Below, in pieces: positions 5,882-32,633 of a stretch of DNA of 32,633 nucleotides; position 1 is the stretch's first letter, and each line of letters starts with the position of its first letter. The stretch lies in NCBI GenBank assembly GCA_030917665.1, contig JAUPUH010000064.1, forward strand, positions 1 through 32,633, written 5' to 3'. The translations under genes were made by a program, and so were the position numbers. This DNA comes from Patescibacteria group bacterium (GTDB taxonomy: Bacteria > Patescibacteriota > Minisyncoccia > Phycocordibacterales > PALSA-1337). The notes beneath the pieces were generated by a model that had not been told where the DNA came from, made no database searches, and saw nothing but the letters and a program-made list of their open reading frames with translations.

Positions 5882-6381
5882 GATGTTTTCATTAAATCCT
5901 TCAGTCTTTCAAGCGCCCGGTGGATTCTTACCGAGACAGTATTTTCTCTTTCATTAAGGATTTCTGCGATGTCTTTAGGTGACAAATCTTCTACAAATCT
6001 CCAAAGAATTAGGTTTTGCTCATCTTGAGAAATCTGCGGCAATAGCCTTAAAACATTCTTAAACTCGGCAGTCTGTTCGATATTCTCGCCACGAGAATCT
6101 GAGGGTTCAAAACCTGCATCTATGAGATTATCAAGTGATTCGGCCTTCTTCTTTCTATACCAATCAATAGCAAGATTTCCAGCTATACGGTAGAGCAACG
6201 CCTTAGGATTCTCAACGTTCTGACCATCTTTCATATATGTCCAGAATTGCATAAATGCTTGCTGGGTCATATCCTGAGCTCGTTCTCGATCACTTACCTT
6301 GAAAAAGCAATGCCTGAAAATTGCGTCAGCATATGCCTCATAAATATCGATAAATGTCTTCTTTGTATCATTCAACTCCAT
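5878..6381 (-). CDS. ECF-type RNA polymerase sigma-70 family factor
   Basis: 167 aa. Region 2 is present (FRHCFFKVSDRERAQDMTQQAFMQFWTY...IAGNLAIDWYRKK). Region 4 is present (DEQNLILWRFVEDLSPKDIAEILNERENTVSVRIHRALERLK). Confidence 0.85.
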   Translation of the reverse strand: MELNDTKKTFIDIYEAYADAIFRHCFFKVSDRERAQDMTQQAFMQFWTYMKDGQNVENPKALLYRIAGNLAIDWYRKKKAESLDNLIDAGFEPSDSRGENIEQTAEFKNVLRLLPQISQDEQNLILWRFVEDLSPKDIAEILNERENTVSVRIHRALERLKDLMKTS

Positions 6382-6426
6382 AGACGTGTGGTTACCCCCA
6401 ATATTACATCGAGTGCCCTTTCAATG

Positions 6427-7416
6427 CTATCTTTTTTCCATCTTCTCTACGAACATATCAAGAAGCTTTCCTGTATCAATTTCACGTTCCGCAAACTCTG
6501 AGCGAAGTATGATAATTGCAATCGGGTACGTCTGTGGGCCGATTTTTTGTTTAAAAAGAGATATCATGCTTTCTTTTGCCTCATCAGTCCTCCCTGTCTT
6601 GCCCCCAATAAAGCTTGAGTTCTTGGAATATGGATTTATATTAACGAAATGGTGCGACTGGTGATCAGATGTTGTTGCCATATCAAAATCAACCGTTCTC
6701 GATATCTTTAGAATGTCTTCTTCATGACTATACAGATATTGAGTCAGGGTAAAAAGATCTTTGGCGTTTGAAATGTTAAATGGACTCAATCCAGAAGCAT
6801 CTCTGAATGAGGTTTTTTCAAGTCCAATTTCCTTAGCAAATGCATTCATCTCCTCCATGAAATTTTCGTAGCCAAAAGACTGAGCATACGCTTCTGCAGC
6901 ATCATTACTCGACTCAAGAAGAAGTGGGTAGAGAAGTTCTTCGGTAGTAAATTTCTCGTCGAGTACGAGACGTCCTGCGTCTCCATATGCATCAAGCATC
7001 GGTTGAGTAATCACTATCTCCTTGTCCGAATCCATAAGATGCTGAACTACGAGTGCTGTATAAAGTTTACTGACAGAAGCTATTGGAAAAACGGAGCTGC
7101 TATTAAAATTAATATACACCTCTCCCGTCTCAAGATTACCAACAAGATATGATTCAGCAGATATGTACGGTCTCGGTCTTTTTTGTTCTATGGGTACTGC
7201 AACAGCAGCTATTGGTGTGGACGAGATGGTGCGTATTTCAAGTGATGGCTCTTTCATTAAGATACTTTCATCAACGTCAACAATACCCTTCTGCGTCTGC
7301 AGAACAGACCCATTGGTATGGGTCTGGGCAGCCTCTCTTATTTTTTCGTTACGAACAGCAATAGCAAAGAGTACCATTGCGCAGCAAGAAATGAGGAGGT
7401 ATTTATTTTCATGCAT
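6427..7416 (-). CDS. serine-type D-Ala-D-Ala carboxypeptidase (peptidase S11, PBP5-like)
   Basis: The SxxK (SVSK), SxN (SSN) and KTG (GGKTGRT) motifs occur in the correct order, with an N-terminal hydrophobic anchor. Confidence 0.85.
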   Translation of the reverse strand: MHENKYLLISCCAMVLFAIAVRNEKIREAAQTHTNGSVLQTQKGIVDVDESILMKEPSLEIRTISSTPIAAVAVPIEQKRPRPYISAESYLVGNLETGEVYINFNSSSVFPIASVSKLYTALVVQHLMDSDKEIVITQPMLDAYGDAGRLVLDEKFTTEELLYPLLLESSNDAAEAYAQSFGYENFMEEMNAFAKEIGLEKTSFRDASGLSPFNISNAKDLFTLTQYLYSHEEDILKISRTVDFDMATTSDHQSHHFVNINPYSKNSSFIGGKTGRTDEAKESMISLFKQKIGPQTYPIAIIILRSEFAEREIDTGKLLDMFVEKMEKR

Positions 7417-15285: not shown

Positions 15286-15318
15286 GAAAAAGCCCCGCAA
15301 CCATCGCGGGGCTTTTTG
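15286..15318. terminator. bidirectional intrinsic terminator (typA and the convergent 15323..16546 gene)
   Basis: Stem agccccgc / gcggggct with a 7-nt loop, an A-run upstream and a T-run downstream. Confidence 0.85.
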
Positions 15319-15322
15319 AAAA

Positions 15323-16546
15323 CTACTTCAGACCTCTGTACAAGCGCCTGATGGTCTCGACTGCATGGATGACTGCTTCTTGTTTATCAGCAATCGCCTT
15401 TGCGGTATGATACCTGCCGTACCGAGCCATGTGAGCTCCACGTCCGATAAGTCGTCCAATCCTTTGGGGACTGATCTTCAAATCGACGTCGAGTAAATAG
15501 GCTGCGATGTAACGTGCTCGAGCAAACCGTGTGAGCGAACTTGAACTACTCAATTGTTTGGGGGTCAATCCGAACACCTGACAAACTATGAACACCAGCG
15601 TTTCTTCGTGGGTGTCCTGTATGATAGGCGTGAATTCCTTGAATTGAAGCTCATAGGGACGGTCCTTTGCAGCTTGTTTCCAAGTTTCTTTTTCGCGAGC
15701 AAACAGTGAGCCGATCTCGACTTGTTCTTCCACGCTCGGAAGCAATGGTGAAATGGGAATTGTTTCTCTAAATTTTCTCTCAAAAGCCTGGATGCGCTTC
15801 AAGAGTCTTTGGAGATGCTCTGGATTTGTTATTGGAGATTTCGCAACCTCCAACCTGTGCCAGATGTAATCAATGGCTTTCTGGGGAGTCGCCCAATTGA
15901 CTCGCCATTTCTCGGCAAGCTGCCGAAATGAAAGCTTTGTGCGGCCGTTGAGACCGAAAAAGCCTTCGAAGAACTCCATGTCCCTCTGCCGATTCGACAG
16001 CGGAATGACCCGAAGTAATCCGAGCATAACAGCAATCGGATCAGCAAGTTGTGAGAGCAATGATCGTGCGACCAAAAACTCTTGTGGTGACAAGGGCGGC
16101 TGGCTTTCTTCCCTGTCCCGCATCCTCTTCTTCGCATCATCAACGACAGTTTTCACTGCCACCGTGAAGGCTTGGAGATTTGACCGGACTTGAGAGTTCT
16201 GCACCTTTTCTAAGGCACGGGCCATTTTTGAGACCATATCCTCGTTAGCTCGTACCCGTTGCCGGAAACGAGCCAATACCTTTCGAACACGACGCGAAAA
16301 GTACGCAAAGAAAGATCGTCCTCGATTTTCATAGGGAAACAAATTGCTTCCAGTATGTAATTCATGAACAAACTCATCAACCAAAATTGCTCTGTGTATC
16401 GGCAATGCCTTCTCACAGTTTGGAATGATTTTTTGAGCGACAATGCTCCTGATCACCTCTGGTTCCACAACGCCCGGGAAAGCGTTGAGGAAAATCAATC
16501 TTCCGTGCAGGGCGATTGTCTCGCCTACAATTCGATTAGTTTCCAT
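15323..16546 (-). CDS. sigma-70-like protein with C-terminal DnaA-domain-IV-like HTH (GC-rich block 3)
   Basis: The start is ATG 16546, with SD AGGAGG (16552-16557) 5 nt upstream. The region-2-like segment is LVDEFVHELHTGSNLFPYENRGRSFFAYFSRRVRKVLARF. The region-4-like segment is LSNRQRDMEFFEGFFGLNGRTKLSFRQLAEKWRVNWATPQKAIDYIWHRL. The C-terminal segment VCQVFGLTPKQLSSSSSLTRFARARYIAAYLLDVDLKISPQRIGRLIGRG resembles Bac_DnaA_C. Confidence 0.75.
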   Translation of the reverse strand: METNRIVGETIALHGRLIFLNAFPGVVEPEVIRSIVAQKIIPNCEKALPIHRAILVDEFVHELHTGSNLFPYENRGRSFFAYFSRRVRKVLARFRQRVRANEDMVSKMARALEKVQNSQVRSNLQAFTVAVKTVVDDAKKRMRDREESQPPLSPQEFLVARSLLSQLADPIAVMLGLLRVIPLSNRQRDMEFFEGFFGLNGRTKLSFRQLAEKWRVNWATPQKAIDYIWHRLEVAKSPITNPEHLQRLLKRIQAFERKFRETIPISPLLPSVEEQVEIGSLFAREKETWKQAAKDRPYELQFKEFTPIIQDTHEETLVFIVCQVFGLTPKQLSSSSSLTRFARARYIAAYLLDVDLKISPQRIGRLIGRGAHMARYGRYHTAKAIADKQEAVIHAVETIRRLYRGLK

Positions 16547-16610
16547 CGTAACCTCCTGGGTTAGTTTGTTTTCGGTTGCACTCTTTAAACAACAAAGAGC
16601 ATTCACTTTG

Positions 16611-16640
16611 ATGGTATCACCGTCCTATAGCTAGGGTCAA
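16611..16640 (-). promoter_or_regulatory. promoter of the sigma-like gene
   Basis: The minus strand reads TTGACC (16640-16635), N18 with TGa, TACCAT (16616-16611). The 11-nt palindrome gtcaatttgac (16636-16646) overlaps the -35 element. Confidence 0.45.
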
Positions 16641-16661
16641 TTTGACATTATTCCCAATGCG

Positions 16662-17084
16662 TTATGATAAATTTACGACTTTATTACGTGGTCTCATAAA
16701 CAACCAGGTACCGAAGATAAAACCGGCAAACTGCACTAACATTTGTTTTATACCGCCAAACATAAAAATTTCAGAGATAAACGGGATGTAGATAGGAACA
16801 AAGTTTAAAAGAAAAAACACCATAATTAAAATACTGCTACGCAACCATACAGCATGAGTCTGTTCCTTATTCAAATTACTCCACAGAGTAATAATCCCCG
16901 AAGACAGGGATGCTCCAATAAAACAAATAAGGTAAGCGTGGGCGAAAAAAATAATATTCACAAAAACAGAGGGTGGATTTATATCACCCACACCCATCGC
17001 CACAAATCCAACAAAAAAATTCCAAGCTGAAATTATTACTGAAAAAATTATTAAATGAAGCACCACATACAGCCACTTATTCAT
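16662..17084 (-). CDS. small integral membrane protein (about 4 TM helices)
   Basis: The protein is hydrophobic throughout. I prefer ATG 17084 (MNKWLYVV...) because TATACT (17097-17092) lies 7 nt upstream. The track start is TTG 17108. I recognise no family. Confidence 0.6.
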   Translation of the reverse strand: MNKWLYVVLHLIIFSVIISAWNFFVGFVAMGVGDINPPSVFVNIIFFAHAYLICFIGASLSSGIITLWSNLNKEQTHAVWLRSSILIMVFFLLNFVPIYIPFISEIFMFGGIKQMLVQFAGFIFGTWLFMRPRNKVVNLS

Positions 17085-17123
17085 AGAATAAAGTATAGCA
17101 TGACTCAATCCCCGTGTAAGTAA

Positions 17124-18095
17124 TCACCAATGTGTTTTGATGTACTCAGAAGCTTCACTCATGGAATATGGCTGAGTTGAGTTCCCTACACGCACATAGA
17201 AATCCTCTTTTTTATCTCCATTATGTAAATATGCTGGCTTATGCCCTTCCCGAACTATAACAAGACAAATATCCTTTCCGTCTATAGTTTCGAAACTCGT
17301 ACTTACGTATTTTGTGAATGTCATGCCGATCATTGTCTTTATAAGCATAGTGATATGATTCTCAAAACCATCACGATTTTTCTTGGGCAAAGTCTTATAG
17401 TCATTTTCAAGTCCTACAACCCTTCCATCATCGTTAACACCTATAATAAGCGTTCCACCGTCTGCATTGAGAAAGCCGACAATCGTCTTTGTAATCATCT
17501 TTTCAAGCTCTTTGCTGATCTCACCCTTTTTCGCATCATAGCGCATTGTCTCTTTAAACTCGACAAAAAGTCCTTCACCCTTTTCTATGAGAATCTTTGG
17601 ATCGCGTGTAAGAAGACGTCCAGAACTACTATGCGCTAATTGCTTAATGACGTGCACATGCTCGTCGTAGTTTGAAACATTCTTTATCTTAGTCACCCGA
17701 CCATTACTATGCTCTAGAATGATGGTTGCATGATACATCATACGACTTATCGGACTTTGATATATCTCAACTGAAGCAACATCAGAGAGACTGACTGATT
17801 TCTTTCGGCGAAATATGAGACCTGATTTTCTAACAATCTCCTTTTCATGAATCTCGAAGCGTGCGAAATACCAGTCCAGAAACAGAATTGTTATGTACAC
17901 GAGCTGAAAACCTGAAAATGCAATCACTTCAAATATATCGAAACGGATAAATGCATGAAAATTAAGACTTTTATAAAGAAGCTCATAATTACCGAGGAAA
18001 GATATCGCGAAGAAAAACAGCGAAGCGATTATTTCCATTGTTAAGACGTTTCTCACGAAGACAAGCGGGCCTTCCTTTATGATGATTCGTCTCAT
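17124..18095 (-). CDS. membrane-anchored bacterial PH (bPH_2/YdbT-like) domain fused to AlbA_2 (Schlafen-type) domain
   Basis: An N-terminal TM hairpin is followed by EIHEKEIVRKSGLIFRRKKSVSLSDVASVEIYQSPISRMMYHATIILE, which is bPH-like. The C-terminal half, LFVEFKETMRYD...ITKTIVGFLNADGGTLIIGVNDDGRVVGLEND...FYVRVGNSTQ, matches the AlbA_2 pattern. Confidence 0.8.
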   Translation of the reverse strand: MRRIIIKEGPLVFVRNVLTMEIIASLFFFAISFLGNYELLYKSLNFHAFIRFDIFEVIAFSGFQLVYITILFLDWYFARFEIHEKEIVRKSGLIFRRKKSVSLSDVASVEIYQSPISRMMYHATIILEHSNGRVTKIKNVSNYDEHVHVIKQLAHSSSGRLLTRDPKILIEKGEGLFVEFKETMRYDAKKGEISKELEKMITKTIVGFLNADGGTLIIGVNDDGRVVGLENDYKTLPKKNRDGFENHITMLIKTMIGMTFTKYVSTSFETIDGKDICLVIVREGHKPAYLHNGDKKEDFYVRVGNSTQPYSMSEASEYIKTHW

Positions 18096-20927: not shown

Positions 20928-22145
20928 CTAGGCAATATTTCTTCCAACCTTTGAACTAATGAAGAAGAGTATAAGTCCAAAGACTACGAGTGTAATAGAA
21001 ATGAACAGCGCGGTTATCGACCCTACATACTGCCAGAGAAAACCTCCCATGATTCCGGCAAACATAACACCAAACCCGATAACTGCATTAAAAACGCCGT
21101 AAGCTGTTCCTCTTTCAGATTCAGGGGTCGCTTTTGCAACGAACGCGCGCTGCGTTGAATCTGTACATGCGGAGAAGATTCCGAGTGTGATAAATGCAAT
21201 GACGAGTGTCGGAATAGTTTGCGAAAGCGCAAACATAAGATACGAAAGCATGAGAAGCATATAACCGAAAACCAGCACGCGTGCCGTACCGACCCCGTCG
21301 CTCAATTTTCCGGCTCCATATGAAAATATGGTAAATGAAATTCCGTAAACCATATAGAAAAGTGGAATAGAAGCGACTGTCAGACCAATCGAAAGAGCAG
21401 AAAGGAGGAGTACTGCTGTGGGCAAGCTACCGACTGAGAGAATAAAAATGGATATGAGATATATCCTGAAACGCTTCGGAAGGAGCTTGATTGCATTGAA
21501 TGAAAACTTTTTTGAACCACTGAGCACTGGGGCAATGAAAACATCTTTCACAAAAAAAACCGTAACGACAGAGAGAAGACCTATAACGAATGCAGTCATA
21601 AAGACTGTACTGAAGGCTCCTGGCCACTCTTTAAGGATAAGAAAAGCTGTGAGTGGTCCGAGAATTCCTCCCACCGTATCCATTGCTCTGTGATAACCAA
21701 ATGACCTCCCTATTTCGTGCGGTTCTGAAGAAACGGAAATAATAACATCACGAGGGGCTTCACGAATACCCTTCCCAACACGATCTATAACGCGCAGACC
21801 CAGTACACCAGCTACGCCACCCATAAAGATATAAAACGGCCGGACTGCAACTGACATGGCATAACCTACGAAAATAAATATTCTTCTTTTACGAATCTTG
21901 TCCGACAATTGGCCAGAATAAATCTTAAGAATATTTGCTGCACCATCAGCAATACCCTCGACAAGACCAAGTGATGCTGCTCCCGATTTCAACACCGAGG
22001 TAAAGAAGGCAGGAAATGATGAAAGTATCATTTCATTCGAAAAGTCATTGAAGAAGCTCGTAAGGCCGAGCATAAAGATGTTCTTGTTCAATCCGAAAAT
22101 CTTTTTTTGCTGCTGCACCGGAGGCATATCCGAAAAGTATACCAT
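20928..22145 (-). CDS. MFS transporter
   Basis: 405 aa with about 12 TM segments. An MFS loop motif GQLSDKIRKRR-like segment lies between TM2 and TM3. Confidence 0.85.
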   Translation of the reverse strand: MVYFSDMPPVQQQKKIFGLNKNIFMLGLTSFFNDFSNEMILSSFPAFFTSVLKSGAASLGLVEGIADGAANILKIYSGQLSDKIRKRRIFIFVGYAMSVAVRPFYIFMGGVAGVLGLRVIDRVGKGIREAPRDVIISVSSEPHEIGRSFGYHRAMDTVGGILGPLTAFLILKEWPGAFSTVFMTAFVIGLLSVVTVFFVKDVFIAPVLSGSKKFSFNAIKLLPKRFRIYLISIFILSVGSLPTAVLLLSALSIGLTVASIPLFYMVYGISFTIFSYGAGKLSDGVGTARVLVFGYMLLMLSYLMFALSQTIPTLVIAFITLGIFSACTDSTQRAFVAKATPESERGTAYGVFNAVIGFGVMFAGIMGGFLWQYVGSITALFISITLVVFGLILFFISSKVGRNIA

Positions 22146-22148
22146 GGA

Positions 22149-22177
22149 TTGACATATCGAATAAAGTACTATATATT
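22149..22177 (+). promoter_or_regulatory. sigma70-like promoter for 22251..22811
   Basis: TTGACA (22149-22154), N17, TATATT (22172-22177). Confidence 0.5.
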
Positions 22178-22250
22178 TTGAACTGAATAAATTTCAGTTG
22201 CGGATGCAGCTGATACGCACAAATAAACCCCAAAGCAGAATACCCCAGTT

Positions 22251-22811
22251 ATGACAACATTGATCAATACTCCTTACGGAATCTTCGAACCTGAAGACGC
22301 ACTCGCGGAGTTGTATGCAGCAAAAAGCTGGACCGCAGCCCAACTCGTCGCCGTGCTTGATGAGTTCTGGGCAAAGGCCCGAGATTGCGCGCGTCGCGCG
22401 AGTCTCTACATCGTCAATATGACGAATCTTGATTACCCGAAGAGAGTCATCTCGCGGGCGAAAGCTCTCATGCGGCTGTTTTCAAGGCCACAGACGAAAA
22501 GCCCTCGGCAGCGCTATGCGCATATCGAGAAGATGCTTCAGGAAGTTACTGCTCAAGCCGGCAAGCCTGTTGCGCTCAAACTCAGCTTCACCGGTGTGGT
22601 GAAAAAAGCTGACCTCGAAACTCTCCTCAACAACCATTGCGTCAGTCTTAGCTCGAAAGCAGAGCGGACTCGGCTTTTCCGGTTGGCCTCGATTAACCCT
22701 AACTTCGACGGCAAGGAAATCTCGGTCAAGGTCTCTCTCACGAACGCTTACGAAGCTTGGTCCCTTACCCACGCCATGCTCAAGCTCGTTCACGATGTCA
22801 AAGTTGTTTAA
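22251..22811 (+). CDS. hypothetical protein (GC-rich block 4)
   Basis: 186-aa ORF with a consensus promoter upstream and a hairpin terminator downstream. I recognise no family. Confidence 0.6.
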   Translation: MTTLINTPYGIFEPEDALAELYAAKSWTAAQLVAVLDEFWAKARDCARRASLYIVNMTNLDYPKRVISRAKALMRLFSRPQTKSPRQRYAHIEKMLQEVTAQAGKPVALKLSFTGVVKKADLETLLNNHCVSLSSKAERTRLFRLASINPNFDGKEISVKVSLTNAYEAWSLTHAMLKLVHDVKVV

Positions 22812-22842
22812 CCCAACCCCGATGGAGTATTAAAATTTCACG

Positions 22843-22877
22843 AAGTCCTGTTGCGCACGCGGCAGGACTTTTCTTTT
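22843..22877 (+). terminator. intrinsic terminator
   Basis: Stem aagtcctg / caggactt followed by ttcttttg. Confidence 0.7.
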
Positions 22878-22878
22878 G

Positions 22879-22912
22879 TAAAAGAAAGTGCCTTTGGTTT
22901 CCCAAAGGCACT
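22879..22912 (-). terminator. intrinsic terminator of the 637-aa gene
   Basis: Perfect 11-bp stem agtgcctttgg / ccaaaggcact with loop tttc. The T-run on the minus strand is the reverse complement of aaaagaaa. Confidence 0.8.
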
Positions 22913-22921
22913 CAGTGAATG

Positions 22922-24835
22922 CTAACAAATTAATTCCAATTCCTTTGCTTTCCTGCCTACCCGTTGGACAGCGACTTTAAAGTCGTCGTCTTCTCGGAAA
23001 CGCTTGGAAGCAAGGTTGTAAATGCTGGTAAACTCGTCCTTGTCGGTCTTGCTGATGATTTTCAGAAAGATCGACTTGGCGTCCGACCAGACAAGTTCGT
23101 TGTGGATAACCAAGCAGAGCATCCAATGTGCTTTCTTGATTTTAATGTGAAGTTCGTCGTCATCATTGGGGAAGTTTGGGACGTCAGCAGGGCTGATATC
23201 ACACTCCTCACAAACAAGTTCAACAACCTTCTGTTCTGCGGGATCAAGCTTTGCTGAAAGCGTAGGGAGTTTGGGGGGAGTGATTTTTGCTGGTAGCCCA
23301 AGTTCGACGGACTCTCCCGTCGCACTGAGCAGCAACTCATCTTCCCTCTTTTCACCCTTGATGACCTTTACAAGCTCATCAACAACCAACATAAACCTGT
23401 AATCCGCGGCGTATGCGGCGCGTGCTGTGCGAAGAATGCCGTGGAAGTCATAAATCGACTTCCTTCCAAGTGCCTTCAAGAAAATCTCTCCGGCAAAAGG
23501 ATGTTTGAGCTTTTCAGCAAAGATCAGTGCGAGCATCCGAGACGCTCGCAAAACCTTTGGCCCGAAGCCGCTCCCGTATGTCGAAGGCTTTGGTAAGTCT
23601 CCAGGCGTGAGGTCGTTGACCTTGCACACCAAGCCGATAATCCTCACCGTCTCTGGCTTTGCGAATTCGGTCTCACTGCTGACGAACGGTCTGCGTACGA
23701 CCGGTGGCCTAACAGCTTTCGGTGGAGCATACGAGAACACCCGTTCAATCGTATGACCCATGCCCAATTCCTTAATCTTCAGTCTTATCCGGTCTTTCCC
23801 TTTGAACTTACGGGCTTCATTCCAGACTTCGACTTGTTTTTCTTCTTGTATGCGAGCCAGTTCCCCAGCCTGCACGATGTAGAGCATGTCCTTGATCGGC
23901 GTAGGCGGAGCAAGCAGCTTCTGCAACTCGGGGTGAAGGTACTTGATACGTAGAATGCCATAGACATTCAACATGTCGAGTCCGCATGATTCAGCAAGGC
24001 TCTGAGCATTCGCCTTTTGTGCTATAAGCCACTGTGCAAACACGGCGCTCATTTTCATCGCACTGTAATCCAGAACCTCACCCTCTGCACAATACTTCCT
24101 CACGAAAGCAGCGAACAGTGGATTTGATTGTGCCCTTAACGCCAACTCATGTTTCATTGGTTCGTCAGGGTTTACCTCCACTGGCTCATGGAGTTCAACT
24201 GGACTTGAAGGAGCAGCCGGCAAAGATGGCGGTAGTTCTGGCTGCTTGAAGTATTCCCGAACGTATGCAGAATCAGGGAGGCCCGACAGAGACGATTTCT
24301 TCATGCTCGGAACCGACAGCGACGCTGGGGCCGACGGTTCGGCAAGATCAAGTCTTACCACCACCTCTTTTTCTGCCGGAGGTGGCGTGAGAAGTTCCTT
24401 GAGCTTTTGGGGATGAAGCACTTCGCATTCGAACTCCCAATCAGCAATCGTGTCGCCAATACCCATTATGCCAATCTTTTTGCCATCTCTCGACTGAATG
24501 AGCATCGTACGACCTGTTTCGATTTCTCGACACATGCCTTGAAATACTCGCATCAAGCGAAATGGTCCGCAGTTCTGTCCGTCCGGGACGCGGTGTTCAA
24601 GCAAAAATACAAAAGTACTGCTTGCAACATCACCGAGCTCGGGTGTAGACGCCTGAGTGTACTTGGGCGCGTTTGAGACCGCACCAATTTTGGCAAAGCC
24701 GAATTCTTGAAGGAACTCGACCGCTTTTGAATCCTTTTTGTCACTGCTAGCTTTCGCATCACATGTGACCCTCACACTGAGAATCCTCAAAACCTTTTGT
24801 GAGGCTCTTGAGGGTGCTCCATTTTTATTGTTCAT
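22922..24835 (-). CDS. large DNA-binding-type protein: unknown N-domain, Pro/Ser linker, ParB-like HTH, two DnaA-domain-IV-like modules (GC-rich block 4)
   Basis: 637 aa. The ParB-HTH-like segment is QSLAESCGLDMLNVYGILRIKYLHPELQKLL. The first DnaA_C-like module is VRIIGLVCKVNDLTPGDL...VLRASRMLALIFAEKLKHPFAGEIFLKALGRKS. The second is VVELVCEECDISPADV...IKKAHWMLCLVIHNEL. Confidence 0.75.
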   Translation of the reverse strand: MNNKNGAPSRASQKVLRILSVRVTCDAKASSDKKDSKAVEFLQEFGFAKIGAVSNAPKYTQASTPELGDVASSTFVFLLEHRVPDGQNCGPFRLMRVFQGMCREIETGRTMLIQSRDGKKIGIMGIGDTIADWEFECEVLHPQKLKELLTPPPAEKEVVVRLDLAEPSAPASLSVPSMKKSSLSGLPDSAYVREYFKQPELPPSLPAAPSSPVELHEPVEVNPDEPMKHELALRAQSNPLFAAFVRKYCAEGEVLDYSAMKMSAVFAQWLIAQKANAQSLAESCGLDMLNVYGILRIKYLHPELQKLLAPPTPIKDMLYIVQAGELARIQEEKQVEVWNEARKFKGKDRIRLKIKELGMGHTIERVFSYAPPKAVRPPVVRRPFVSSETEFAKPETVRIIGLVCKVNDLTPGDLPKPSTYGSGFGPKVLRASRMLALIFAEKLKHPFAGEIFLKALGRKSIYDFHGILRTARAAYAADYRFMLVVDELVKVIKGEKREDELLLSATGESVELGLPAKITPPKLPTLSAKLDPAEQKVVELVCEECDISPADVPNFPNDDDELHIKIKKAHWMLCLVIHNELVWSDAKSIFLKIISKTDKDEFTSIYNLASKRFREDDDFKVAVQRVGRKAKELELIC

Positions 24836-24881
24836 GAACTTACCTTTCTACCTCTCAAGAGGTGTTGGTTTGACTAGCAAA

Positions 24882-24910
24882 AAATTATCACAGTTTTGGT
24901 GGTCTGACAA
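24882..24910 (-). promoter_or_regulatory. promoter of the 637-aa gene
   Basis: The minus strand reads TTGTCA (24910-24905), N17 ending in TGa, TAATTT (24887-24882). Confidence 0.5.
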
Positions 24911-24926
24911 TGATTATGCCAATGTA

Positions 24927-24955
24927 TTGACATTTACTTTAATATGTTGTAATTT
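24927..24955 (+). promoter_or_regulatory. divergent promoter for 24988..25314
   Basis: TTGACA (24927-24932), N17, TAATTT (24950-24955). SD AGGAG (24977-24981) lies 6 nt before the ATG. Confidence 0.55.
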
Positions 24956-24987
24956 ATGGATAAACAACAGTTCACCAGGAGAAAAAT

Positions 24988-25314
24988 ATGACTCAAGGAC
25001 TAATTAGTATTGTGCAGGACGGTAAGGTCGTCATGAAAATCATCACAGGAGCAGATGGTCAGTGTGCCAGCAAAGTCGCAAAGGCGATCAAGAAGCTGGG
25101 GCACATTCCAGAACCAGAAGAAGCTTACGACCTTGCTCTGAGACATGGGTTCGGCCACGAGAGTTCACTTGTGGTAATGAACGGTAAGGAAACATTTCAC
25201 AAAACTGATACAGAAGGGTTCGAAAAGGGTTATCGTCAGACTTTTGACAACCCTGAATTCAATCCACGCTGGGATCACGGAACCGCTGATTACACTCAAA
25301 TCGTGCACTTGTGA
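24988..25314 (+). CDS. small hypothetical protein
   Basis: 108 aa with a good promoter and SD. I recognise no family. Confidence 0.6.
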   Translation: MTQGLISIVQDGKVVMKIITGADGQCASKVAKAIKKLGHIPEPEEAYDLALRHGFGHESSLVVMNGKETFHKTDTEGFEKGYRQTFDNPEFNPRWDHGTADYTQIVHL

Positions 25315-25377
25315 TTTCACCTGACACGACTCACCGCTCACTGAAGCCGCTGGCTTTAGTCGGCGGTTTTCATTTAC

Positions 25378-25824
25378 CTAAAATTTCCTACTATCGTATG
25401 CCCAATGGAGCAATGCCTGGCGCTGACGAGGACGGCAATGTACATCCCCTGCCCTGCAATTATTCCGTATTTGCACAATATGTCTTCGCATCGCTTTCCA
25501 TCTTTTTATCTGTCGAGCATCTTCATCTGGAATTCTTCGGCCAAGGTAGTAACGACAATACCACTCAAACCAACCTCGTGGATCGTATTTCGATATCCAA
25601 CCTTTTGCTTTCCATACCGAGAGCGGTTGGCTCGCATTCACACCAAAGTAATTTAGATTCTTGTCGTGCTTTTCTGAATTTAATTTTGCATTTTCGAACC
25701 AGTCACGCGGATATTCTAAAGGCTTGTCAGACATGTAGTGTCCACCAAAGACTCCAAGCTCAAGCATTTCCTTCGGAGTGAGTTCGGGTTTGAATTCTGG
25801 ATCAAAGTTATCGGGGAATTTCAT
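25378..25824 (-). CDS. conserved hypothetical protein with Trp/Arg-rich motif
   Basis: I take the start at ATG 25824 (MKFPDNF...), with TATACT (25836-25831) 6 nt upstream. The motif KGWISKYDPRGWFEWYCRYYLGRRIPDEDARQIKRW looks like a widely conserved uncharacterised family that I cannot name. The antisense ORF 25311..25781 is judged to be a shadow. Confidence 0.65.
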   Translation of the reverse strand: MKFPDNFDPEFKPELTPKEMLELGVFGGHYMSDKPLEYPRDWFENAKLNSEKHDKNLNYFGVNASQPLSVWKAKGWISKYDPRGWFEWYCRYYLGRRIPDEDARQIKRWKAMRRHIVQIRNNCRAGDVHCRPRQRQALLHWAYDSRKF

Positions 25825-25954
25825 ATAAATAGTATACCGCACATGTAGCCTGTGGATTATTTTGACTTTATCATAAAAAGATGTTACTCTCCTTGTCGGG
25901 TCCTATCTCACCACTGACGGTGTTAAGGGCATGTACACAAACGGAAATTGAAAA

Positions 25955-27070
25955 ATGAAAATGAAACTGACGGTAATGGTCGCCACACTCGTGGCGATTT
26001 CTAGTCTCGGCCTGCAAGCGCAGGAACTCACCAAGGAACAGTATTATGGACTCGAGCTCTTGGCTCAAGACGCTCGTGATGCCCTTGAGGAAAGTGAACG
26101 CAAGGCTGCTGAAGCTTACGCCAAACTCAGTCCGGAAGAACGGCTCGTACGGCAAATTCTCCTGGAAAAACAGAGGGAAGAGTACGAAAAAATCCGCGCG
26201 ATCATAACACCGCCAGAAATCACACCAGAGATGGTTGCGAAAGCGCAGCAGAACCGGCGTCTCAATAAAATCACAGTAACCCCAATCGTCGCGAAAATTG
26301 CTTCCATCTCAGAAGGCGGCGGGATTCAGGAGTTATCCTTCGGTGGATGCGGGGCTGATTCCAATCAGTTCTACAATGTCCCACTCTTCGATGCGGCAAC
26401 GCCTCCGCAGTGGCAAACTGAAAATGCACCAACCACCTACTACCCCTGGAGTTACTATGTCAACACGATTGACTTCACGGGAAGAAAGGCGATTCGCTCA
26501 GGTGCATTCTCAGCGAACTTCTCCAGTTCACCGCTCTACTACACCCTGACGAACAATTGGGATACGTACGGCGTACCTCTGAACCACCGTCTGACATTCA
26601 AATATACGTTTACGAAATCAGCTACGGCGGATGTCTTCAGGTTGCAAATCGGCTCGCTTCTCACGAACCTGCCGGTATCGTCAGGATGGACACAGGTGTC
26701 ATTCGTCATCCCACCATTCCCACGGACACAGACGAATGCTCAAGTGACCTTTACGGTCTTCAAGCAATCAACACAATCGTCCAGTCCGAGAGCAGACCTC
26801 TATGCGGTGCAATGGTGCACCGAAGTCCGCCCGGACAATAGGGCGATTAAGGCCCAAGCGGTCGGGAGTTCAGTGGCCGTCAGTTGGTCGCATGAGTCAT
26901 GTCCGACGAACTATTGGAGTCTCATGTACTCTCCGATCATGAACACAAACGAAGTGTTCTGGAGTACGAACATCGGCACGAGTCCCATCGTGTATTCGAA
27001 TACAACAGCGGTCGTGACCTTCCCTGCAACCGGCAGCGAACGTTACTATCGGCTCAAGCGAAACTTCTAA
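25955..27070 (+). CDS. secreted protein, helical N-region plus beta-rich (jelly-roll/Ig-like) C-region
   Basis: The signal peptide is MKMKLTVMVATLVAISSLGLQAQ. The beta-rich C-terminal half ends in ERYYRLKRNF. A terminator follows. Confidence 0.65.
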   Translation: MKMKLTVMVATLVAISSLGLQAQELTKEQYYGLELLAQDARDALEESERKAAEAYAKLSPEERLVRQILLEKQREEYEKIRAIITPPEITPEMVAKAQQNRRLNKITVTPIVAKIASISEGGGIQELSFGGCGADSNQFYNVPLFDAATPPQWQTENAPTTYYPWSYYVNTIDFTGRKAIRSGAFSANFSSSPLYYTLTNNWDTYGVPLNHRLTFKYTFTKSATADVFRLQIGSLLTNLPVSSGWTQVSFVIPPFPRTQTNAQVTFTVFKQSTQSSSPRADLYAVQWCTEVRPDNRAIKAQAVGSSVAVSWSHESCPTNYWSLMYSPIMNTNEVFWSTNIGTSPIVYSNTTAVVTFPATGSERYYRLKRNF

Positions 27071-27089
27071 TCCGTTTCAGTTCTTTCAC

Positions 27090-27123
27090 CTCCCGCAGGC
27101 CACAAGCCCGCGGGAGTATTTTT
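27090..27123 (+). terminator. intrinsic terminator
   Basis: Stem ctcccgcagg / cccgcgggag (one mismatch) with a 7-nt loop, followed by tattttta. Confidence 0.7.
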
Positions 27124-27649
27124 ATTTCTTTTCTTGAAACCCCATCTTCCCTTTTGGCTTCGGTGGTGGTTCAAGCAGATGCTTTACGACTGCATGTACG
27201 CTTTTCAGAAGATCTCCATGCTCTTTTTGTTTCTTTTCAACTTCACCAATCCTGATTTCCAAATCTTTGTTTGATAGAACTAATTCTTTAACCTTTATAA
27301 ATACGCGAATAATCAGAATATTCATCTGCACTGCTATCTCACTTCTTAAGACTGATGAAAGCATTGCGACGCCATGTTCAGTGAATGCGTAGGGTAAATA
27401 TTTGATATTACGGTGTACGTGTGAACCGGTTCCAATTTGGAACCGGTTACTGTACTCCTCGACAGTTAGTTGAAACATAAAATCCACAGGAAACCTCTCT
27501 AGATTTCTCTTAACAGCTTTATTGAGATTTTTCGTCTCAACTCTATATAACTCCGCCAAATCAGAATCGAGCATAACTCTGTAGCCACGGATAACATAGA
27601 TCCTTTGTTTAATGATTTCTTCCGGATCAATTTTTATCTTTTCACTCAT
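27122..27649 (-). CDS. ORF6N domain (KilA-N-related DNA-binding) protein
   Basis: IRGYRVMLDSDLAELYRVETKNLNKAVKRNLERFPVDFMFQLTVEE is the typical ORF6N signature, followed by a C-terminal coiled coil. The promoter is TTGCTT (27687-27682), N17, TATTAT (27664-27659), with the ATG 9 nt downstream. Confidence 0.85.
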   Translation of the reverse strand: MSEKIKIDPEEIIKQRIYVIRGYRVMLDSDLAELYRVETKNLNKAVKRNLERFPVDFMFQLTVEEYSNRFQIGTGSHVHRNIKYLPYAFTEHGVAMLSSVLRSEIAVQMNILIIRVFIKVKELVLSNKDLEIRIGEVEKKQKEHGDLLKSVHAVVKHLLEPPPKPKGKMGFQEKK

Positions 27650-27745
27650 GATGTTTCAATAATAAAATCGGCTCGCTTATCAAGCAACTGAAAAATTCAT
27701 TAAAATTTTAAACTTCTGTGGAAAAGTGGCGGCAAATTTACCAAA

Positions 27746-28996: not shown

Positions 28997-29003
28997 GCCC
29001 TAT

Positions 29004-29033
29004 ATTATAGGTGAACGGATGTTCACTAGGCAA
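29004..29033 (-). promoter_or_regulatory. dinB promoter
   Basis: The minus strand reads TTGCCT (29033-29028), N18, TATAAT (29009-29004). Confidence 0.5.
29011..29026. promoter_or_regulatory. Cheo-type LexA (SOS) box candidate
   Basis: gtGAACggatGTTCac is the GAAC-N4-GTTC palindrome. It lies exactly in the spacer between the -35 and -10 elements of the dinB promoter. Confidence 0.55.
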
Positions 29034-29085
29034 GGGATAATCAAATTTCTCTTGCTTTTATGTTTCATGGGTGTATTATCCTGGC

Positions 29086-29511
29086 ATGAGCTTAGATCTC
29101 AAAGACATCAAAATTGTTGAAAGTGAAAGTTTTATTTTCACCCTTTTCAATTTTCTCTTTTTAATACTGCCTGGAGTTGCAATTATTTATATATTTAATA
29201 ATGAACTCTTTATAAATGCTGATTGGATAAAAATTATCCTCATATCAGGAGCTGTAACAGCTCCCTTGGTGCTTGTAAATACTTTTATATTAGTCACAAT
29301 ATTTATGTGTAATAAAAAAAGTACTGAGAGCAGTCTATTCATTTCATTTTCTTTGAGTGTTCTCTTAAGTGGTCTAATTCTATACACAAATATTGCCCTT
29401 CATTATATTTTTGAAAAAACATTTAGGAGTGGGGTTTACTTTACATTTGCTATAGAATTTATACTTATAGTAATAATGGGAATTCGTCTCAAAGGTATGC
29501 GAAAAAAATAA
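29086..29511 (+). CDS. small integral membrane protein (AT-rich island)
   Basis: About 4 TM helices. ATG 29086 lies 6 nt after TATTAT (29074-29079), with TTGCTT at 29052-29057. The track start is GTG 29071. Confidence 0.6.
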   Translation: MSLDLKDIKIVESESFIFTLFNFLFLILPGVAIIYIFNNELFINADWIKIILISGAVTAPLVLVNTFILVTIFMCNKKSTESSLFISFSLSVLLSGLILYTNIALHYIFEKTFRSGVYFTFAIEFILIVIMGIRLKGMRKK

Positions 29512-29683
29512 AGTTACTCGACGAATGCTGTACAGTTTTTTAAATGTTTTTCTTTTTCGATTTTTTTTGATATACTTAAGCAATAATTTAATAGTCTCTA
29601 GGATGTCACTAATTTCAATTTCTCCTTTTTCAAAATTACTTCTTACAACACAAATTTTGCTTGTTGTAATCTTTTCTTTTAAC

Positions 29684-29730
29684 ATCGTATCAGATAGAAT
29701 GTTCTCAAAGAACATTCTATCTGATACGAT
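29684..29730. repeat. perfect 22-bp inverted repeat (palindrome)
   Basis: atcgtatcagatagaatgttct (29684-29705), loop caa, agaacattctatctgatacgat (29709-29730). Confidence 0.9.
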
Positions 29731-29759
29731 TCGCAGGTAAAATAAAGTTATACTAGATT

Positions 29760-29796
29760 AACAAAAAAGTATCCGTTTATCAGATACTTTTTTGTT
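29760..29796. terminator. bidirectional terminator-like hairpin
   Basis: 14-bp stem aacaaaaaagtatc / gatacttttttgtt with a 9-nt loop. The A/T runs are built into the stem ends. Confidence 0.65.
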
Positions 29797-29807
29797 TTAA
29801 ATATTTT

Positions 29808-29990
29808 TTATTTAGGAAACTTTACCCCCCTCATAACTTCCCTCTGCTCCTCACTGGCTTTCTTTGCCACATCCAAAAATACCTTCTTTTTTTCTCCAGA
29901 AGATGCAGTACGAAAAAACTTAGAAAACTCACTCGAGTTATCTTTGCTTTCTGAATTACGAGTCATTTTTGATATGATTTCCCTGAACAT
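29808..29990 (-). CDS. 60-aa protein translationally coupled downstream of the zeta toxin gene
   Basis: The ATG lies 2 nt after the zeta TAG stop (TAGctATG). The peptide is charged and probably helical (KKKVFLDVAKKASEEQREVM). I recognise no family. Confidence 0.45.
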   Translation of the reverse strand: MFREIISKMTRNSESKDNSSEFSKFFRTASSGEKKKVFLDVAKKASEEQREVMRGVKFPK

Positions 29991-29992
29991 AG

Positions 29993-30703
29993 CTAGATAA
30001 TAATTAACTTTCTTAAATCATCTACAGTGTACTTTTCTGGGATATAATTGTCAACTACGTCAATGTTCTCCCGATAATTAAAATCAGTACCGTCAATATT
30101 TTTGACAACCAAATCAACTCTCAATTTATTACCAAATTCTTTCTTTAAAAGATTAGTATTCGTTCTAGCTAAAAAATATTGATTAATAAATGCTTCCAAT
30201 GGCACCTTTCTACCATCCTTTTGCTCACGTGCTTTTACAAAGTTCCAAGCCTGGAGAGGCTCTTGGTAGACGTACAAGATTTGTGTGAATCTGTTTTTGT
30301 TCAATGATCTTTGTATATTTTGCTTCGACCGATCAAGATTCGAAAGGGTTCCATCGAATACAAAACTTTGTTTGTTCTTAAGAGCACAATCTTGAATGTT
30401 GTCTGCGATAATAGAGGTAGCGCTCATGAAAAGACTCGAATTTGTGCCATTGTACTCACTAAATTTTGATCTTAGTTCATCTGGGTCAATACGGAGAACA
30501 AAATGACTATCTTTGGAAAGTTTCTCGATAAGATTTCTTGAGGACTCTGTTTTCCCTGCACCAGGAGAACCTGCCATAAACACAGATACAGGAAATTCGT
30601 CTGGAATAAATAGTGATAAGTTAGTTATCTCTTTCGCGATTACTTTCTTGTTCTTTCGGGCATATTCTTCTGCTCGTTCTTTAATTAAAGCTTCTTCGGA
30701 CAT
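29993..30703 (-). CDS. zeta-toxin family kinase (P-loop)
   Basis: The Walker A motif is FMAGSPGAGKTESS. RIDPDELRSKFSEYNG and FVFDGTLSN fit the Zeta_toxin family. The promoter is TTCAAA (30739-30734), N17, TATAAT (30716-30711), with the ATG 7 nt downstream. Confidence 0.85.
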   Translation of the reverse strand: MSEEALIKERAEEYARKNKKVIAKEITNLSLFIPDEFPVSVFMAGSPGAGKTESSRNLIEKLSKDSHFVLRIDPDELRSKFSEYNGTNSSLFMSATSIIADNIQDCALKNKQSFVFDGTLSNLDRSKQNIQRSLNKNRFTQILYVYQEPLQAWNFVKAREQKDGRKVPLEAFINQYFLARTNTNLLKKEFGNKLRVDLVVKNIDGTDFNYRENIDVVDNYIPEKYTVDDLRKLIII

Positions 30704-30754
30704 AACATTGATTATATCTGAATTATCTCTTCTTTTGAAGAAAAAACCCTGTAA

Positions 30755-31846
30755 TTATTTCCCTGCTTTTGTTCGGTTGTCTTGTTTACACAACATCTGA
30801 CAATTTTCAGTGATTGTTTTCCCTCCCTCATGCCAAGGAGTAACGTGATCGGCCTCCATTTCTGAAATATCGAATTCTTTTTTACAAAATGAACAAATAC
30901 CATCTTGTCGCTCATAGGCTTCACGCTTCATTTTGTCAGTGAATGCACGAATTGAAAGATATTTTTCTTGTCGATTAAGAACATAAGGATAAATGCCGGA
31001 TTTCTTGGTTACGTCTTCATCTTGCATAAACTCTATAATCTCAGACTCTAACTTACTGGAACTTAATTTTTTATCCTTAAATTGATTATAAAGCTCACCC
31101 CATTGAACTACGCTCATTTCTTTACGATAATTGGGGAATGTCTTTCGTACCCATATAACAACATCCTGGAAATACTGCCACAGTTTATCAGCATTCTTGT
31201 CATGCTGATGCTTAGCCATATAATCCTCTATCTTACCATCATTAATCCATGATAAAGCAGTTTCTAAATATTCCTGACGAATTGGGGACCCGCTTAGCAA
31301 CTGACCGCCATCATTTGCAAGAAGGTATGCGACACAATTAGTCTTACTAAATTTAAGCTTTGCATCAGAAAGCCAAGGACCAGTATATACCGCATTACGT
31401 AACTCTTGTTCTGTAAGCTTTTCACCAGCTATATTAATAATCCTGAACCAATCTAACCTTTCCTTATCTGTCCCCTCACAGAAATAGATCATTAACTCAT
31501 AATCCAAGATATGATTTTGTTCTTCAGTTGTCAGGTTATGAAAAAATCGATCATTGAGCGAAAAATCTCCGTTTACATACTGTCCAATACTAATAGTACG
31601 TTGCTGTCCGTCCAACACCTCAAAATCACCCTCATCAGTCTTAACCCAATACATTACATTAAGCGGAAATCCATTTTTAATTGTTTCAATAACCGCATCA
31701 CGTTGATGGCCTTTATAAACAAATTCACGCTGGTATTTTGGTCGAATATTAAGCTTACCGCCATAAGCAACAACACCTTCCTCTGCACTATCTTCATAAC
31801 CTTTTATTACATACCGTACTTGAATTTTTTGTAATTCTATTTTCAT
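30755..31846 (-). CDS. DUF262 (ParB/GmrSD-N-like) domain protein with C-terminal HNH nuclease
   Basis: IRPKYQREFVY and LDGQQRTISI are DUF262 signatures. The C-terminal segment CSFCKKEFDISEMEADHVTPWHEGGKTITENCQMLCKQDNRTK is an HNH motif. Confidence 0.85.
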   Translation of the reverse strand: MKIELQKIQVRYVIKGYEDSAEEGVVAYGGKLNIRPKYQREFVYKGHQRDAVIETIKNGFPLNVMYWVKTDEGDFEVLDGQQRTISIGQYVNGDFSLNDRFFHNLTTEEQNHILDYELMIYFCEGTDKERLDWFRIINIAGEKLTEQELRNAVYTGPWLSDAKLKFSKTNCVAYLLANDGGQLLSGSPIRQEYLETALSWINDGKIEDYMAKHQHDKNADKLWQYFQDVVIWVRKTFPNYRKEMSVVQWGELYNQFKDKKLSSSKLESEIIEFMQDEDVTKKSGIYPYVLNRQEKYLSIRAFTDKMKREAYERQDGICSFCKKEFDISEMEADHVTPWHEGGKTITENCQMLCKQDNRTKAGK

Positions 31847-31850
31847 ATTA

Positions 31851-32633
31851 TTAGATTGTTTTATTTTTAATCAAAATGCGAAAATATTTTGATTTGCCTT
31901 TAATTTCTGTTAAGTGAATATGATTCTCGCGTGCCCAATTATTTAATTTTTCTACATCAAGAATAGTGTAACGATTAAGTCCATCAATAATCTGAAACTG
32001 AGTAGGATTGTATTTATGAAGAAAACTTATTGGTACACCCATAACTTTTTTATAGTCAAGTGGTATTTCTGTACACCTATCAATATTAATTGCATCATAA
32101 TTATCATATTTTTGATAAGTTTCCCTAGAAAAACGCTTGTATAGTGTAATAGTATCGTGACGTTTTGGTACGTCCATATTCGTAAACCAAACAACACCAT
32201 TTACAAAAATTAAATGGTTACCATAATCATCTATTTTGTGTTTTGCATTTTCACTAAATACGTAATCATTCGGAACTCTAAACCATCTATTACTTCCGTT
32301 CATTGATTGGCCGAGCCATACCTTATCCTCTTTGATCAACCTAAAAATTTCTTTATACGTGATAGCATTTTGATTACCAATAATCAAGAACTTTTTATTA
32401 TATTCGACTAACTGTGCTACATATTCACGGAATAATGAAAATGGTGGATTAGTACATACCACATCTGCCTCTTTTAACAACTCAATTGATTCCATACTTC
32501 GAAAATCACCATTACCAGTTAGAGGTGTCGCAACATTTTTATCGTGCTTTAAAAGATATTCGACATCAGTTATGTCTATAGACCCACTTTCATTTGTATC
32601 CTTTACTTCATTAATCTCAATCTTAAATGGTTG
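31851..32633 (-). CDS. N6-adenine DNA methyltransferase, M.EcoRI family (5' end outside window)
   Basis: The frame stays open to the window edge (QPFKIEINEV...). GDFRSMESIELLKEADVVCTNPPFSLFREY, YDNYDAINI, VMGVPISFLHKYNP and YFRILIKNK match my recollection of M.EcoRI. The stop lies 4 nt before the DUF262-HNH start. Confidence 0.85.
   Translation of the reverse strand, partial: QPFKIEINEVKDTNESGSIDITDVEYLLKHDKNVATPLTGNGDFRSMESIELLKEADVVCTNPPFSLFREYVAQLVEYNKKFLIIGNQNAITYKEIFRLIKEDKVWLGQSMNGSNRWFRVPNDYVFSENAKHKIDDYGNHLIFVNGVVWFTNMDVPKRHDTITLYKRFSRETYQKYDNYDAINIDRCTEIPLDYKKVMGVPISFLHKYNPTQFQIIDGLNRYTILDVEKLNNWARENHIHLTEIKGKSKYFRILIKNKTI

Follow-up and report, generated by a model that had tools for sequence, protein, structure and literature searches.

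The 32,633-nucleotide stretch of DNA analysed here, referred to throughout as the window, is contig JAUPUH010000064.1 (assembly GCA_030917665.1) of a Patescibacteria group bacterium. On its minus strand, between positions 22922 and 24835 (ATG start; stop codon at 22922–22924), is a gene for a protein of 637 amino acids (aa), which we refer to here as p637. The protein is composed of an N-terminal domain (N-domain), a Pro/Ser-rich linker, a helix-turn-helix (HTH) domain of the ParB type that lacks the ParB_N half, and two duplicated units with the fold of DnaA domain IV. Its modules of DNA-binding type are one of the ParB kind and two of the DnaA-domain-IV kind, and the ParB motor domain is absent. 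The initial annotation, made from the sequence by eye, had described this open reading frame (ORF), and every string that it quoted is present: QSLAESCGLDMLNVYGILRIKYLHPELQKLL at residue 278, VRIIGLVCKVNDLTPGDL at residue 397, ALGRKS at residue 455, VVELVCEECDISPADV at residue 537 and IKKAHWMLCLVIHNEL at residue 566.

p637 is a real gene. The identical protein recurs on nine contigs, which come from at least five sequencing runs (SRR24011137-150). Upstream of the start codon are a promoter-like element of the extended −10 type (TGTGATAATTTTTTGCTAGTC, positions 24872–24892, minus strand) and a GAAAGG ribosome-binding site (24843–24848, minus strand), and directly 3′ of the stop codon is a hairpin resembling an intrinsic terminator (22886–22913, minus strand), with a 12-bp stem containing six GC pairs, and a T-run. 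The promoter-like element (TGTGATAATTTT..GCTAGTC) and the GAAAGG site are conserved in two related genomes, the former being the same upstream of one relative, P0002, and more diverged upstream of another, P0003. Taken together, the identical product on nine contigs, the promoter-like element, the ribosome-binding site and the terminator are evidence that the gene is probably expressed. The GC content of the gene is 0.498 and that of the 15323–16606 gene is 0.479, in agreement with the blocks of about 50% GC reported initially; the window as a whole has a value of 0.42.

Described initially as an orphan, p637 is instead one of a rare family, some of whose members are annotated as ParB. When 1.84 billion cluster representatives were scanned exhaustively with HMMER, 43 relatives were recovered at E ≤ 1e-3, of which 11 reached E ≤ 1e-10; within this 43-representative family, Pfam detects ParB_N in 18 members, HTH_ParB in 11 and Bac_DnaA_C in one. 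A word-indexed protein search returned p637 itself and nothing else, with no match for an alignment of the C-terminal units and a single ordinary ParB for an alignment of the family. The complete protein and its segments gave no match in Pfam or NCBIfam (E ≤ 10), PHROGs, PADLOC or the PDB (searched with phmmer), and tblastn with p637 found nothing in 72,556 plasmids or 50,697 phages. Collection scans with an alignment of the HTH region (A4) used one narrow peptide pattern, which the family member P0012 does not fit; they recovered five relatives from metagenome_contigs and none from genome_contigs or viral_contigs. Genes of the p637/P0002 type are absent from the GTDB representatives by this pattern, a result that says nothing about the family as a whole.

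Full-length relatives comprise the N-domain, a Pro-rich linker, ParB_N with a GERR box, the HTH and a helical tail of about 90 residues. In carrying an additional N-terminal module on a ParB core they resemble Noc and KorB, which are likewise built of a ParB core and an extra N-terminal module. Among them is P0012 (MBI5126233.1), annotated as ‘ParB/RepB/Spo0J family partition protein [Candidatus Taylorbacteria bacterium]’. Proteins of the P0012 type share the N-domain, Pro-rich linker and ParB HTH with p637 and likewise stand alone, without ParA, but in them ParB_N, including the GERR box, and the helical C-terminal tail are retained, and DnaA-domain-IV-like units are absent. In four further N-domain proteins (P0027, P0013, P0030 and P0033) a related unit replaces the ParB part; like p637 they combine the N-domain with a DnaA-domain-IV-like unit, but the unit is single and there is no ParB HTH. 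The N-domain therefore pairs with either kind of HTH module. P0030 (HEY4499391.1) is a hypothetical protein of a Candidatus Paceibacterota bacterium and is surrounded by genes typical of the candidate phyla radiation (CPR). All members of known taxon come from Paceibacteria, a lineage of the CPR. An origin of the distant members in Verrucomicrobia, considered because of a VPDSG-CTERM neighbour, was rejected, as the named sources are Taylorbacteria and Paceibacterota and the contexts are CPR-like. The gene for P0012 (locus L100, 10001–11686; JACRJP010000002.1) stands by itself, on the opposite strand, with tuf on one side and a block of PG_binding, fusA, rpsG and rpsL genes on the other, an unusual place for a ParB-like gene. 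By eye, the C-terminal stretch of P0013, P0030 and P0033 resembles an HTH of the sigma-region-4 type.

At the N terminus of p637 is the family-defining N-domain (residues 1–150; positions 24386–24835, minus strand), a β-rich domain of eight strands and two helices. A match to residues 1–160 is found in 25 other family members (phmmer, independent E-value < 1e-4). The AlphaFold2 model, calculated from an alignment of 26 sequences (A7), has a predicted local distance difference test score (pLDDT) of 88.4 and a predicted template modelling score (pTM) of 0.81. Foldseek searches with this model returned nothing significant from the PDB, where the best matches were the β-barrel handles of TbpB (E = 0.022, TM-score 0.35–0.39), followed by low-scoring CYTH and lipocalin barrels, or from BFVD, where the best match had an E-value of 0.034 and a TM-score of 0.23. 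There was likewise no match in Pfam, and a sequence profile search of the PDB came back empty. As modelled, the N-domain is a real and confidently folding domain without an assignable fold in the PDB or BFVD; the initial annotation had found no nameable relative for this part of the protein, and none was found in the PDB, BFVD or Pfam. It is a previously undescribed domain of about 140 residues, β-rich and followed by a Pro-rich linker. Ahead of its first strand is a conserved basic peptide, MKN/MNNK..S.K.GA.K (residues 1–14), seen in P0001, P0006, P0008, P0010, P0020, P0024 and others, which is disordered in the model (pLDDT 59).

Connecting the N-domain to the rest of the protein is the linker recognized initially (residues 151–215; positions 24191–24385, minus strand), in which Pro and Ser make up 37% of the residues and the isoelectric point (pI) is 4.9. 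Pro-rich linkers are found at the equivalent position in the relatives of p637.

The middle part of p637 (residues 216–385) is ParB-related and is common to about 35 family members, as detected with phmmer. It begins with a short helical segment in the position of ParB_N (residues 216–275; positions 24011–24190, minus strand; phmmer against relatives). Residues 242–373 align with residues 357–483 of P0005, downstream of the GERR box at residue 326 of that protein, so that residues 242–275 correspond to the last ParB_N helices of P0005 and the part upstream of them is missing. ParB_N itself (PF02195) gave no match in p637 at E ≤ 10, and no GERR box is found in the ParB position; the sole match to the regular expression is GEKR at residue 494, at the C-terminal end of the first unit. 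At least six family members combine the N-domain with an HTH and no GERR box, several of them with an ‘F(I/V)xxxCGG’ segment. The missing ParB_N thus represents an architecture that recurs, not an isolated case of decay.

Following this segment is the ParB-type HTH domain (residues 276–385; positions 23681–24010, minus strand), which is basic (pI 9.8) and was assigned by profile homology. Residues 242–382 match relatives that bear PF17762 or PF02195, with library-wide E-values of 1e-13 to 1e-5, whereas HTH_ParB (PF17762) gave no direct Pfam match in p637. The profile A3, which covers the HTH region and has p637 in its first row, matches Helicobacter pylori Spo0J (PDB 4umk, E = 8.7e-4) and, more weakly, 6sdk, 1vz0, 6s6h and 6t1f, the ParB/Spo0J proteins of Bacillus subtilis, Thermus thermophilus and Caulobacter crescentus being among the weaker matches. 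One relative, P0009, matches the PHROGs family ‘ParB-like partition protein’ with an E-value of 5.8e-20. By transitive and profile homology only, residues 276–385 are homologous to the ParB HTH, as had been proposed initially. ParB proteins are CTP-gated DNA clamps. The homology of p637 to the ParB/Spo0J CTPase clamps (ParB, Noc, KorB and VirB; PF02195 plus PF17762) is that of the HTH; the ParB_N GERR/CTP half, the usual C-terminal domain, ParA and parS are all lacking. Because the CTP-binding half is missing, established ParB biology predicts that p637 neither binds nor hydrolyses CTP and does not behave as a sliding clamp.

The C-terminal region contains two units arranged in tandem. Unit 1 (U1, residues 395–499; positions 23339–23653, minus strand) is basic (pI 9.6) and was assigned a DnaA-domain-IV-like fold from an AlphaFold2 model, Foldseek and hhalign. 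Separating it from unit 2 is a Pro-rich linker (residues 500–532; positions 23240–23338, minus strand) with 24% Pro and Ser. Unit 2 (U2, residues 533–637; positions 22925–23239, minus strand), identified by alignment as a duplicate of U1, is acidic (pI 5.2). The Smith–Waterman score of U1 against U2 is 95, compared with a mean of 24.7 ± 4.1 for shuffled sequences (z = 17.4; reached by 0 of 2,000 shuffles), and the alignment runs without gaps over about 100 residues (phmmer domain independent E-value 2.5e-7). This alignment marks U1 and U2 as the products of an internal duplication. The sole C-terminal unit of P0002 matches U2 with an E-value of 3.4e-27 and U1 with 7.6e-10 (phmmer), and by these scores U2 is the orthologue of that lone unit.

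The link to DnaA came from hhalign and the fold search, as a profile of the p637-type units (A5, comprising four sequences other than DnaA) did not find DnaA when run against the PDB. A second alignment (A6), consisting of the units of P0033, P0030 and P0013 and that of p407, the product of the gene at 15323–16546 in the window, matches Aquifex DnaA over the whole domain (PDB 1l8q and 2hcb, E = 2.7e-7) and the Mycobacterium tuberculosis DnaA DNA-binding domain (3pvp, 1.2e-5). Aligned with hhalign, the two unit profiles are related with a probability of 92.5% (E = 4.9e-7, 85 columns), or 83.7% when the p407 unit is left out. The best AlphaFold2 model of U1, built from A5 alone, has a pLDDT of 87.4 and a pTM of 0.81, three of the five models having a pLDDT of 52–65. 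Its top PDB match in Foldseek is the M. tuberculosis domain 3pvp (TM-score 0.70/0.76, r.m.s.d. of 3.1 Å, probability 1.00); the E-value is no better than 0.14, which is usual for a helical domain of this small size. The runner-up is B. subtilis DnaA (8btg, TM-score 0.65), and RptR, which represents the fold family ranked next, scores no more than 0.46.

The order of elements in U1 (helix, basic loop, long helix, HTH and C-terminal helix) is that of DnaA domain IV (PF08299; 3pvp, 1l8q/2hcb, 8btg and 1j1v), with which it shares fold, collinear layout and the profile link. The units differ from domain IV in having no match to Bac_DnaA_C (PF08299; E ≤ 10, whole protein or isolated units), in lacking the DHTTV motif, in the acidity of U2 (net charge −5; the P0002 unit has a pI of 6.3 and Aquifex domain IV one of 9.7), and in their tandem arrangement at the C terminus of a ParB-derived protein. 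No AAA+ or Bac_DnaA domain was found in p637 by Pfam or NCBIfam. The evidence supports U1 and U2 as DnaA-domain-IV-like at the level of predicted fold and remote homology, and not as members of the Pfam family. The tandem units with a DnaA_C layout that were initially noted are therefore borne out by the duplication score, by hhalign and by the Foldseek ranking. Searched segment by segment, the assignments made by eye stood at the level of family profiles for ParB, and of hhalign and fold for DnaA domain IV, and failed as direct Pfam matches.

About 6 kb from p637 is the second gene with a DnaA_C-like region, that encoding p407. The region (residues 317–372; positions 15431–15598, minus strand) has a match just short of the threshold to Pfam Bac_DnaA_C and also matches NCBIfam DnaA, the gene product reaching E = 3.1e-7 with the former (30.7 bits, cut-off 31.5) and 1.3e-7 with the latter. 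The initial annotation suggested that the two genes form a paralogue set, which the comparisons did not demonstrate. BLASTP gives an E-value of only 0.066; hhalign of A5 against the DnaA_C region of p407 alone gives a probability of 3% (E = 0.014); U1 and U2 align with the p407 unit with Smith–Waterman z-scores of 4.1–4.4, reached by 3–9 of 2,000 shuffles; and phmmer with the full-length sequences finds nothing, outside the unit included. The two genes have a fold superfamily and a pattern of evolution in common, closer kinship not being demonstrated. The pattern is apparent in the block at 15300–17120 (the 15323–16606 gene plus a 148-aa ORF), which many relatives lack between BipA and the AlbA_2/Schlafen-like gene, and in the positional orthologue of p407 in L006, the nearest relative of the window, which is 32% identical. 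To judge from these comparisons, this block is a second fast-evolving locus.

Positional orthologues of p637 are found in two related loci, L086 (from Hainich H41 groundwater) and L092, and share with it the locus, the promoter-like element and the ribosome-binding site. Both loci have the gene order 148-aa orphan, family gene, convergent gene of about 190 aa, MFS (major facilitator superfamily) transporter, exonuclease and histidyl-tRNA synthetase (HisRS). The flanking proteins are 85–97% identical, and the 148/154-aa orphan is 95–99% identical. The family proteins themselves have diverged much further: the identity of p637 with P0002 is 42%, measured over the C-terminal 280 residues, and that with P0003 is 25%. 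P0002 (495 aa, L086) differs from p637 in having a degenerate N-domain (hhalign E = 4e-4) and one unit, and P0003 (304 aa, L092) terminates after the HTH and has no units. Gene order and protein identities show a p637 locus that is fixed in related genomes while the protein diverges very fast, which looks like vertical descent with rapid divergence and not like repeated insertion.

Bounding the variable locus upstream is the 154-aa orphan gene (25378–25842, minus strand; L086 8661–9107 and L092 68–514), which matches nothing in Pfam, the PDB, PHROGs or PADLOC. Its high identity indicates that, although placed beside the hyper-variable p637, it is strongly constrained. On the other side is a convergent orphan gene of 186 aa (22251–22811, plus strand) with its own terminator (22842–22871); a gene of about 190 aa occupies the same position in L086 (10785–11363, minus strand) and L092 (1601–2170, minus strand). 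Its products in L086 and L092 share 36% identity; BLASTP could not align the version in the window. This gene may be a co-varying partner of p637.

The reading that we consider best, with a probability of about 0.55, is that p637 is a ParB-derived, multivalent DNA-binding protein or regulator without CTPase, belonging to a rare family and carrying a new N-domain on a Pro-rich linker. p637 would bind specific DNA through its ParB-type HTH, with U1 probably making a second contact with DNA, and would act as a site-specific regulator or local organizer of DNA, for example a repressor or a factor that bridges DNA. It would be neither a CTP-gated sliding clamp nor a partition protein that binds a centromere. 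Protein–protein contact, oligomerization or regulation would fall to the N-domain and the acidic U2.

Several observations weigh against this. p637 has no direct match in Pfam or the PDB, and the assignment to ParB combines transitive homology with a profile match of modest E-value. DNA binding by a ParB HTH in the absence of ParB_N and of the C-terminal dimerization domain is assumed. No operator-like repeat or palindrome beyond chance expectation occurs near the p637 gene, and no DNA target was found. The DHTTV recognition motif of Aquifex DnaA corresponds, by chained alignments, to SIYDF in U1 and DKDEF in U2, and DnaA-box-like 9-mers are not enriched in the window (13 observed, 8.7 ± 2.8 expected). 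With the motif replaced and U2 acidic, the units may not bind DNA at all, so that to speak of three DNA-binding modules overstates the case. Four of the 13 DnaA-box-like 9-mers lie in the island at 22.9–27.8 kb (23101–23109, 24955–24963, 25851–25859 and 27717–27725, the last on the minus strand), and the only perfect one, TTATCCACA, is inside the p637 gene.

Compatible with p637 as a ParB-derived DNA-binding regulator, and moderately likely to add a biological role to it, is the proposal that the gene regulates or forms part of a rapidly evolving locus with a conflict or accessory role, for instance a system of defence or anti-defence, or a cryptic mobile island. p637 would then repress or organize its variable neighbours and co-evolve with the convergent gene of about 190 aa. 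As an explanation in its own right it is tentative. The low identity (25–42%) of positional orthologues amid flanks that are 85–99% identical points in this direction, as do the variation of the convergent gene, the raised GC content (0.50–0.52 against 0.42), and the absence from L086 of the 371-aa orphan, with an ORF6N gene nearby that matches anti-repressor PHROGs and the candidate defence family PDC-S05. The p407 locus behaves alike, being absent from many relatives and represented in L006 by an orthologue of 32% identity, and a weaker structural neighbour of U1 is RptR, reportedly the repressor of a phage-defence island (PMC12255303). On the other hand, the window contains neither integrase nor transfer RNA gene, and no flanking repeats were found in 22100–27200, the only stretch scanned, where the repeats present look like chance. 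Nor did p637 and three orphan neighbours match PADLOC or PHROGs, or p637 any plasmid or phage by tblastn, and the position, promoter-like element and ribosome-binding site have been kept in three genomes. An extended form of this proposal, more speculative still, makes the N-domain family a Paceibacteria-specific, hitherto unrecognized class of ParB-derived DNA-binding factors with swappable modules, in which a new β-rich sensor or interaction domain is coupled to ParB-CTPase, ParB-HTH-only or DnaA-domain-IV modules, hyper-divergent copies at fixed loci take part in genetic conflict, and U2 mimics DnaA or DNA; p637 and the 15323–16546 gene might, for example, silence or recognize foreign DNA or interfere with the initiation of replication.

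ParB and DnaA modules both act near replication origins in known systems, which lends some appeal to a role in modulating initiation, with the units competing for DnaA boxes or the acidic U2 mimicking DNA or DnaA and titrating a partner. DnaA domain IV is the top structural match, and the units are linked by profile to modules that match DnaA structures. This explanation is nevertheless unlikely: DHTTV is not kept, the window has no excess of DnaA-box-like 9-mers and no origin-like switch in its cumulative GC skew, p637 carries no AAA+ domain, and the presence of one unit in P0002 and none in P0003 makes the units dispensable at this locus. Less likely again is that p637 is a functional ParB-type segregation protein acting at the centromere of a chromosome or extrachromosomal element, the partition role having been among the possibilities first listed. 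The homology of the HTH, the annotation of P0012 as a partition protein and the PHROGs match of P0009 would fit such a role; the loss of the GERR/CTP-binding half of ParB_N, the replacement of the C-terminal region by DnaA-domain-IV-like units and the failure to find plasmid or phage relatives would not. No ParA-type gene is present in the window or beside the relatives in L091, L094–L097, L100 and L102, whose neighbours are otherwise unrelated, and no match to the parS consensus was found with up to three mismatches. Equally improbable is that p637 is a decaying or non-functional ORF, a ParB relic minus its N-terminal half. Such a relic could account for the lost ParB_N, the very fast divergence and the want of a direct family match, but not readily for an intact ORF of 1.9 kb with an identical product on nine contigs, two separately modelled domains with a pLDDT of 87–88, an internal duplication retained in frame, an architecture without ParB_N in at least six members, or a conserved promoter-like element, ribosome-binding site and terminator.

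The modules of p637 are of known kinds; what is new is the architecture, the N-domain and the speed with which a CPR locus of fixed position evolves. The parts of the literature covered by our search contained no account of any of these three, nor of ParB-like and DnaA-domain-IV modules together, and the papers matching Bac_DnaA_C, or ParB in Patescibacteria, looked unrelated. Paceibacteria are ultra-small bacteria, and their regulatory proteins are almost unstudied. As derivatives of ParB that have kept the HTH and recruited other DNA-binding folds, proteins such as p637 show how the ParB scaffold is repurposed, their present value lying in the new domain and architecture rather than in a mechanism. 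Since p637 and the second DnaA_C gene 6 kb away both evolve much faster than the genes around them while their loci stay fixed, both are candidates for a part in genetic conflict or in regulation specific to the lineage.

Relative to L086, the window has in addition a 108-aa ORF, the 371-aa orphan (25955–27070) and the ORF6N-domain gene (27122–27649, minus strand), the last matching phage anti-repressor PHROGs with an E-value of 6.8e-27 and PDC-S05 in PADLOC with 4e-55. Both the ORF6N gene and the 371-aa orphan are absent from the syntenic L086 locus, and the orphans of 154, 186, 108 and 371 aa gave no lead in Pfam or the PDB. In L086, at 6202–7302 on the minus strand, is a 366-aa ORF (GC content 0.34) that by eye resembles a DNA cytosine-5 methyltransferase and adjoins DinB; it was not seen in the matching part of the window. 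The housekeeping genes of the window include those for HisRS, TruB, BipA and adenylate kinase, type IV pilus genes and a gene for an extracytoplasmic function (ECF) sigma factor with DUF5667. Its BipA matches metagenome-assembled genomes of Patescibacteria, Taylorbacteria and Paceibacteria, the nearest relative, L006, being 83% identical at the DNA level. At 17124–18095 on the minus strand is a gene combining a bacterial PH domain with Schlafen/AlbA_2, which has a weak PADLOC match (E = 2e-4) to a family associated with prokaryotic Argonaute (pAgo). The end of the window, from 29000 to 32633, has a low GC content (30–36%) and a strongly negative GC skew, and contains a zeta-toxin family gene at 29993–30703.

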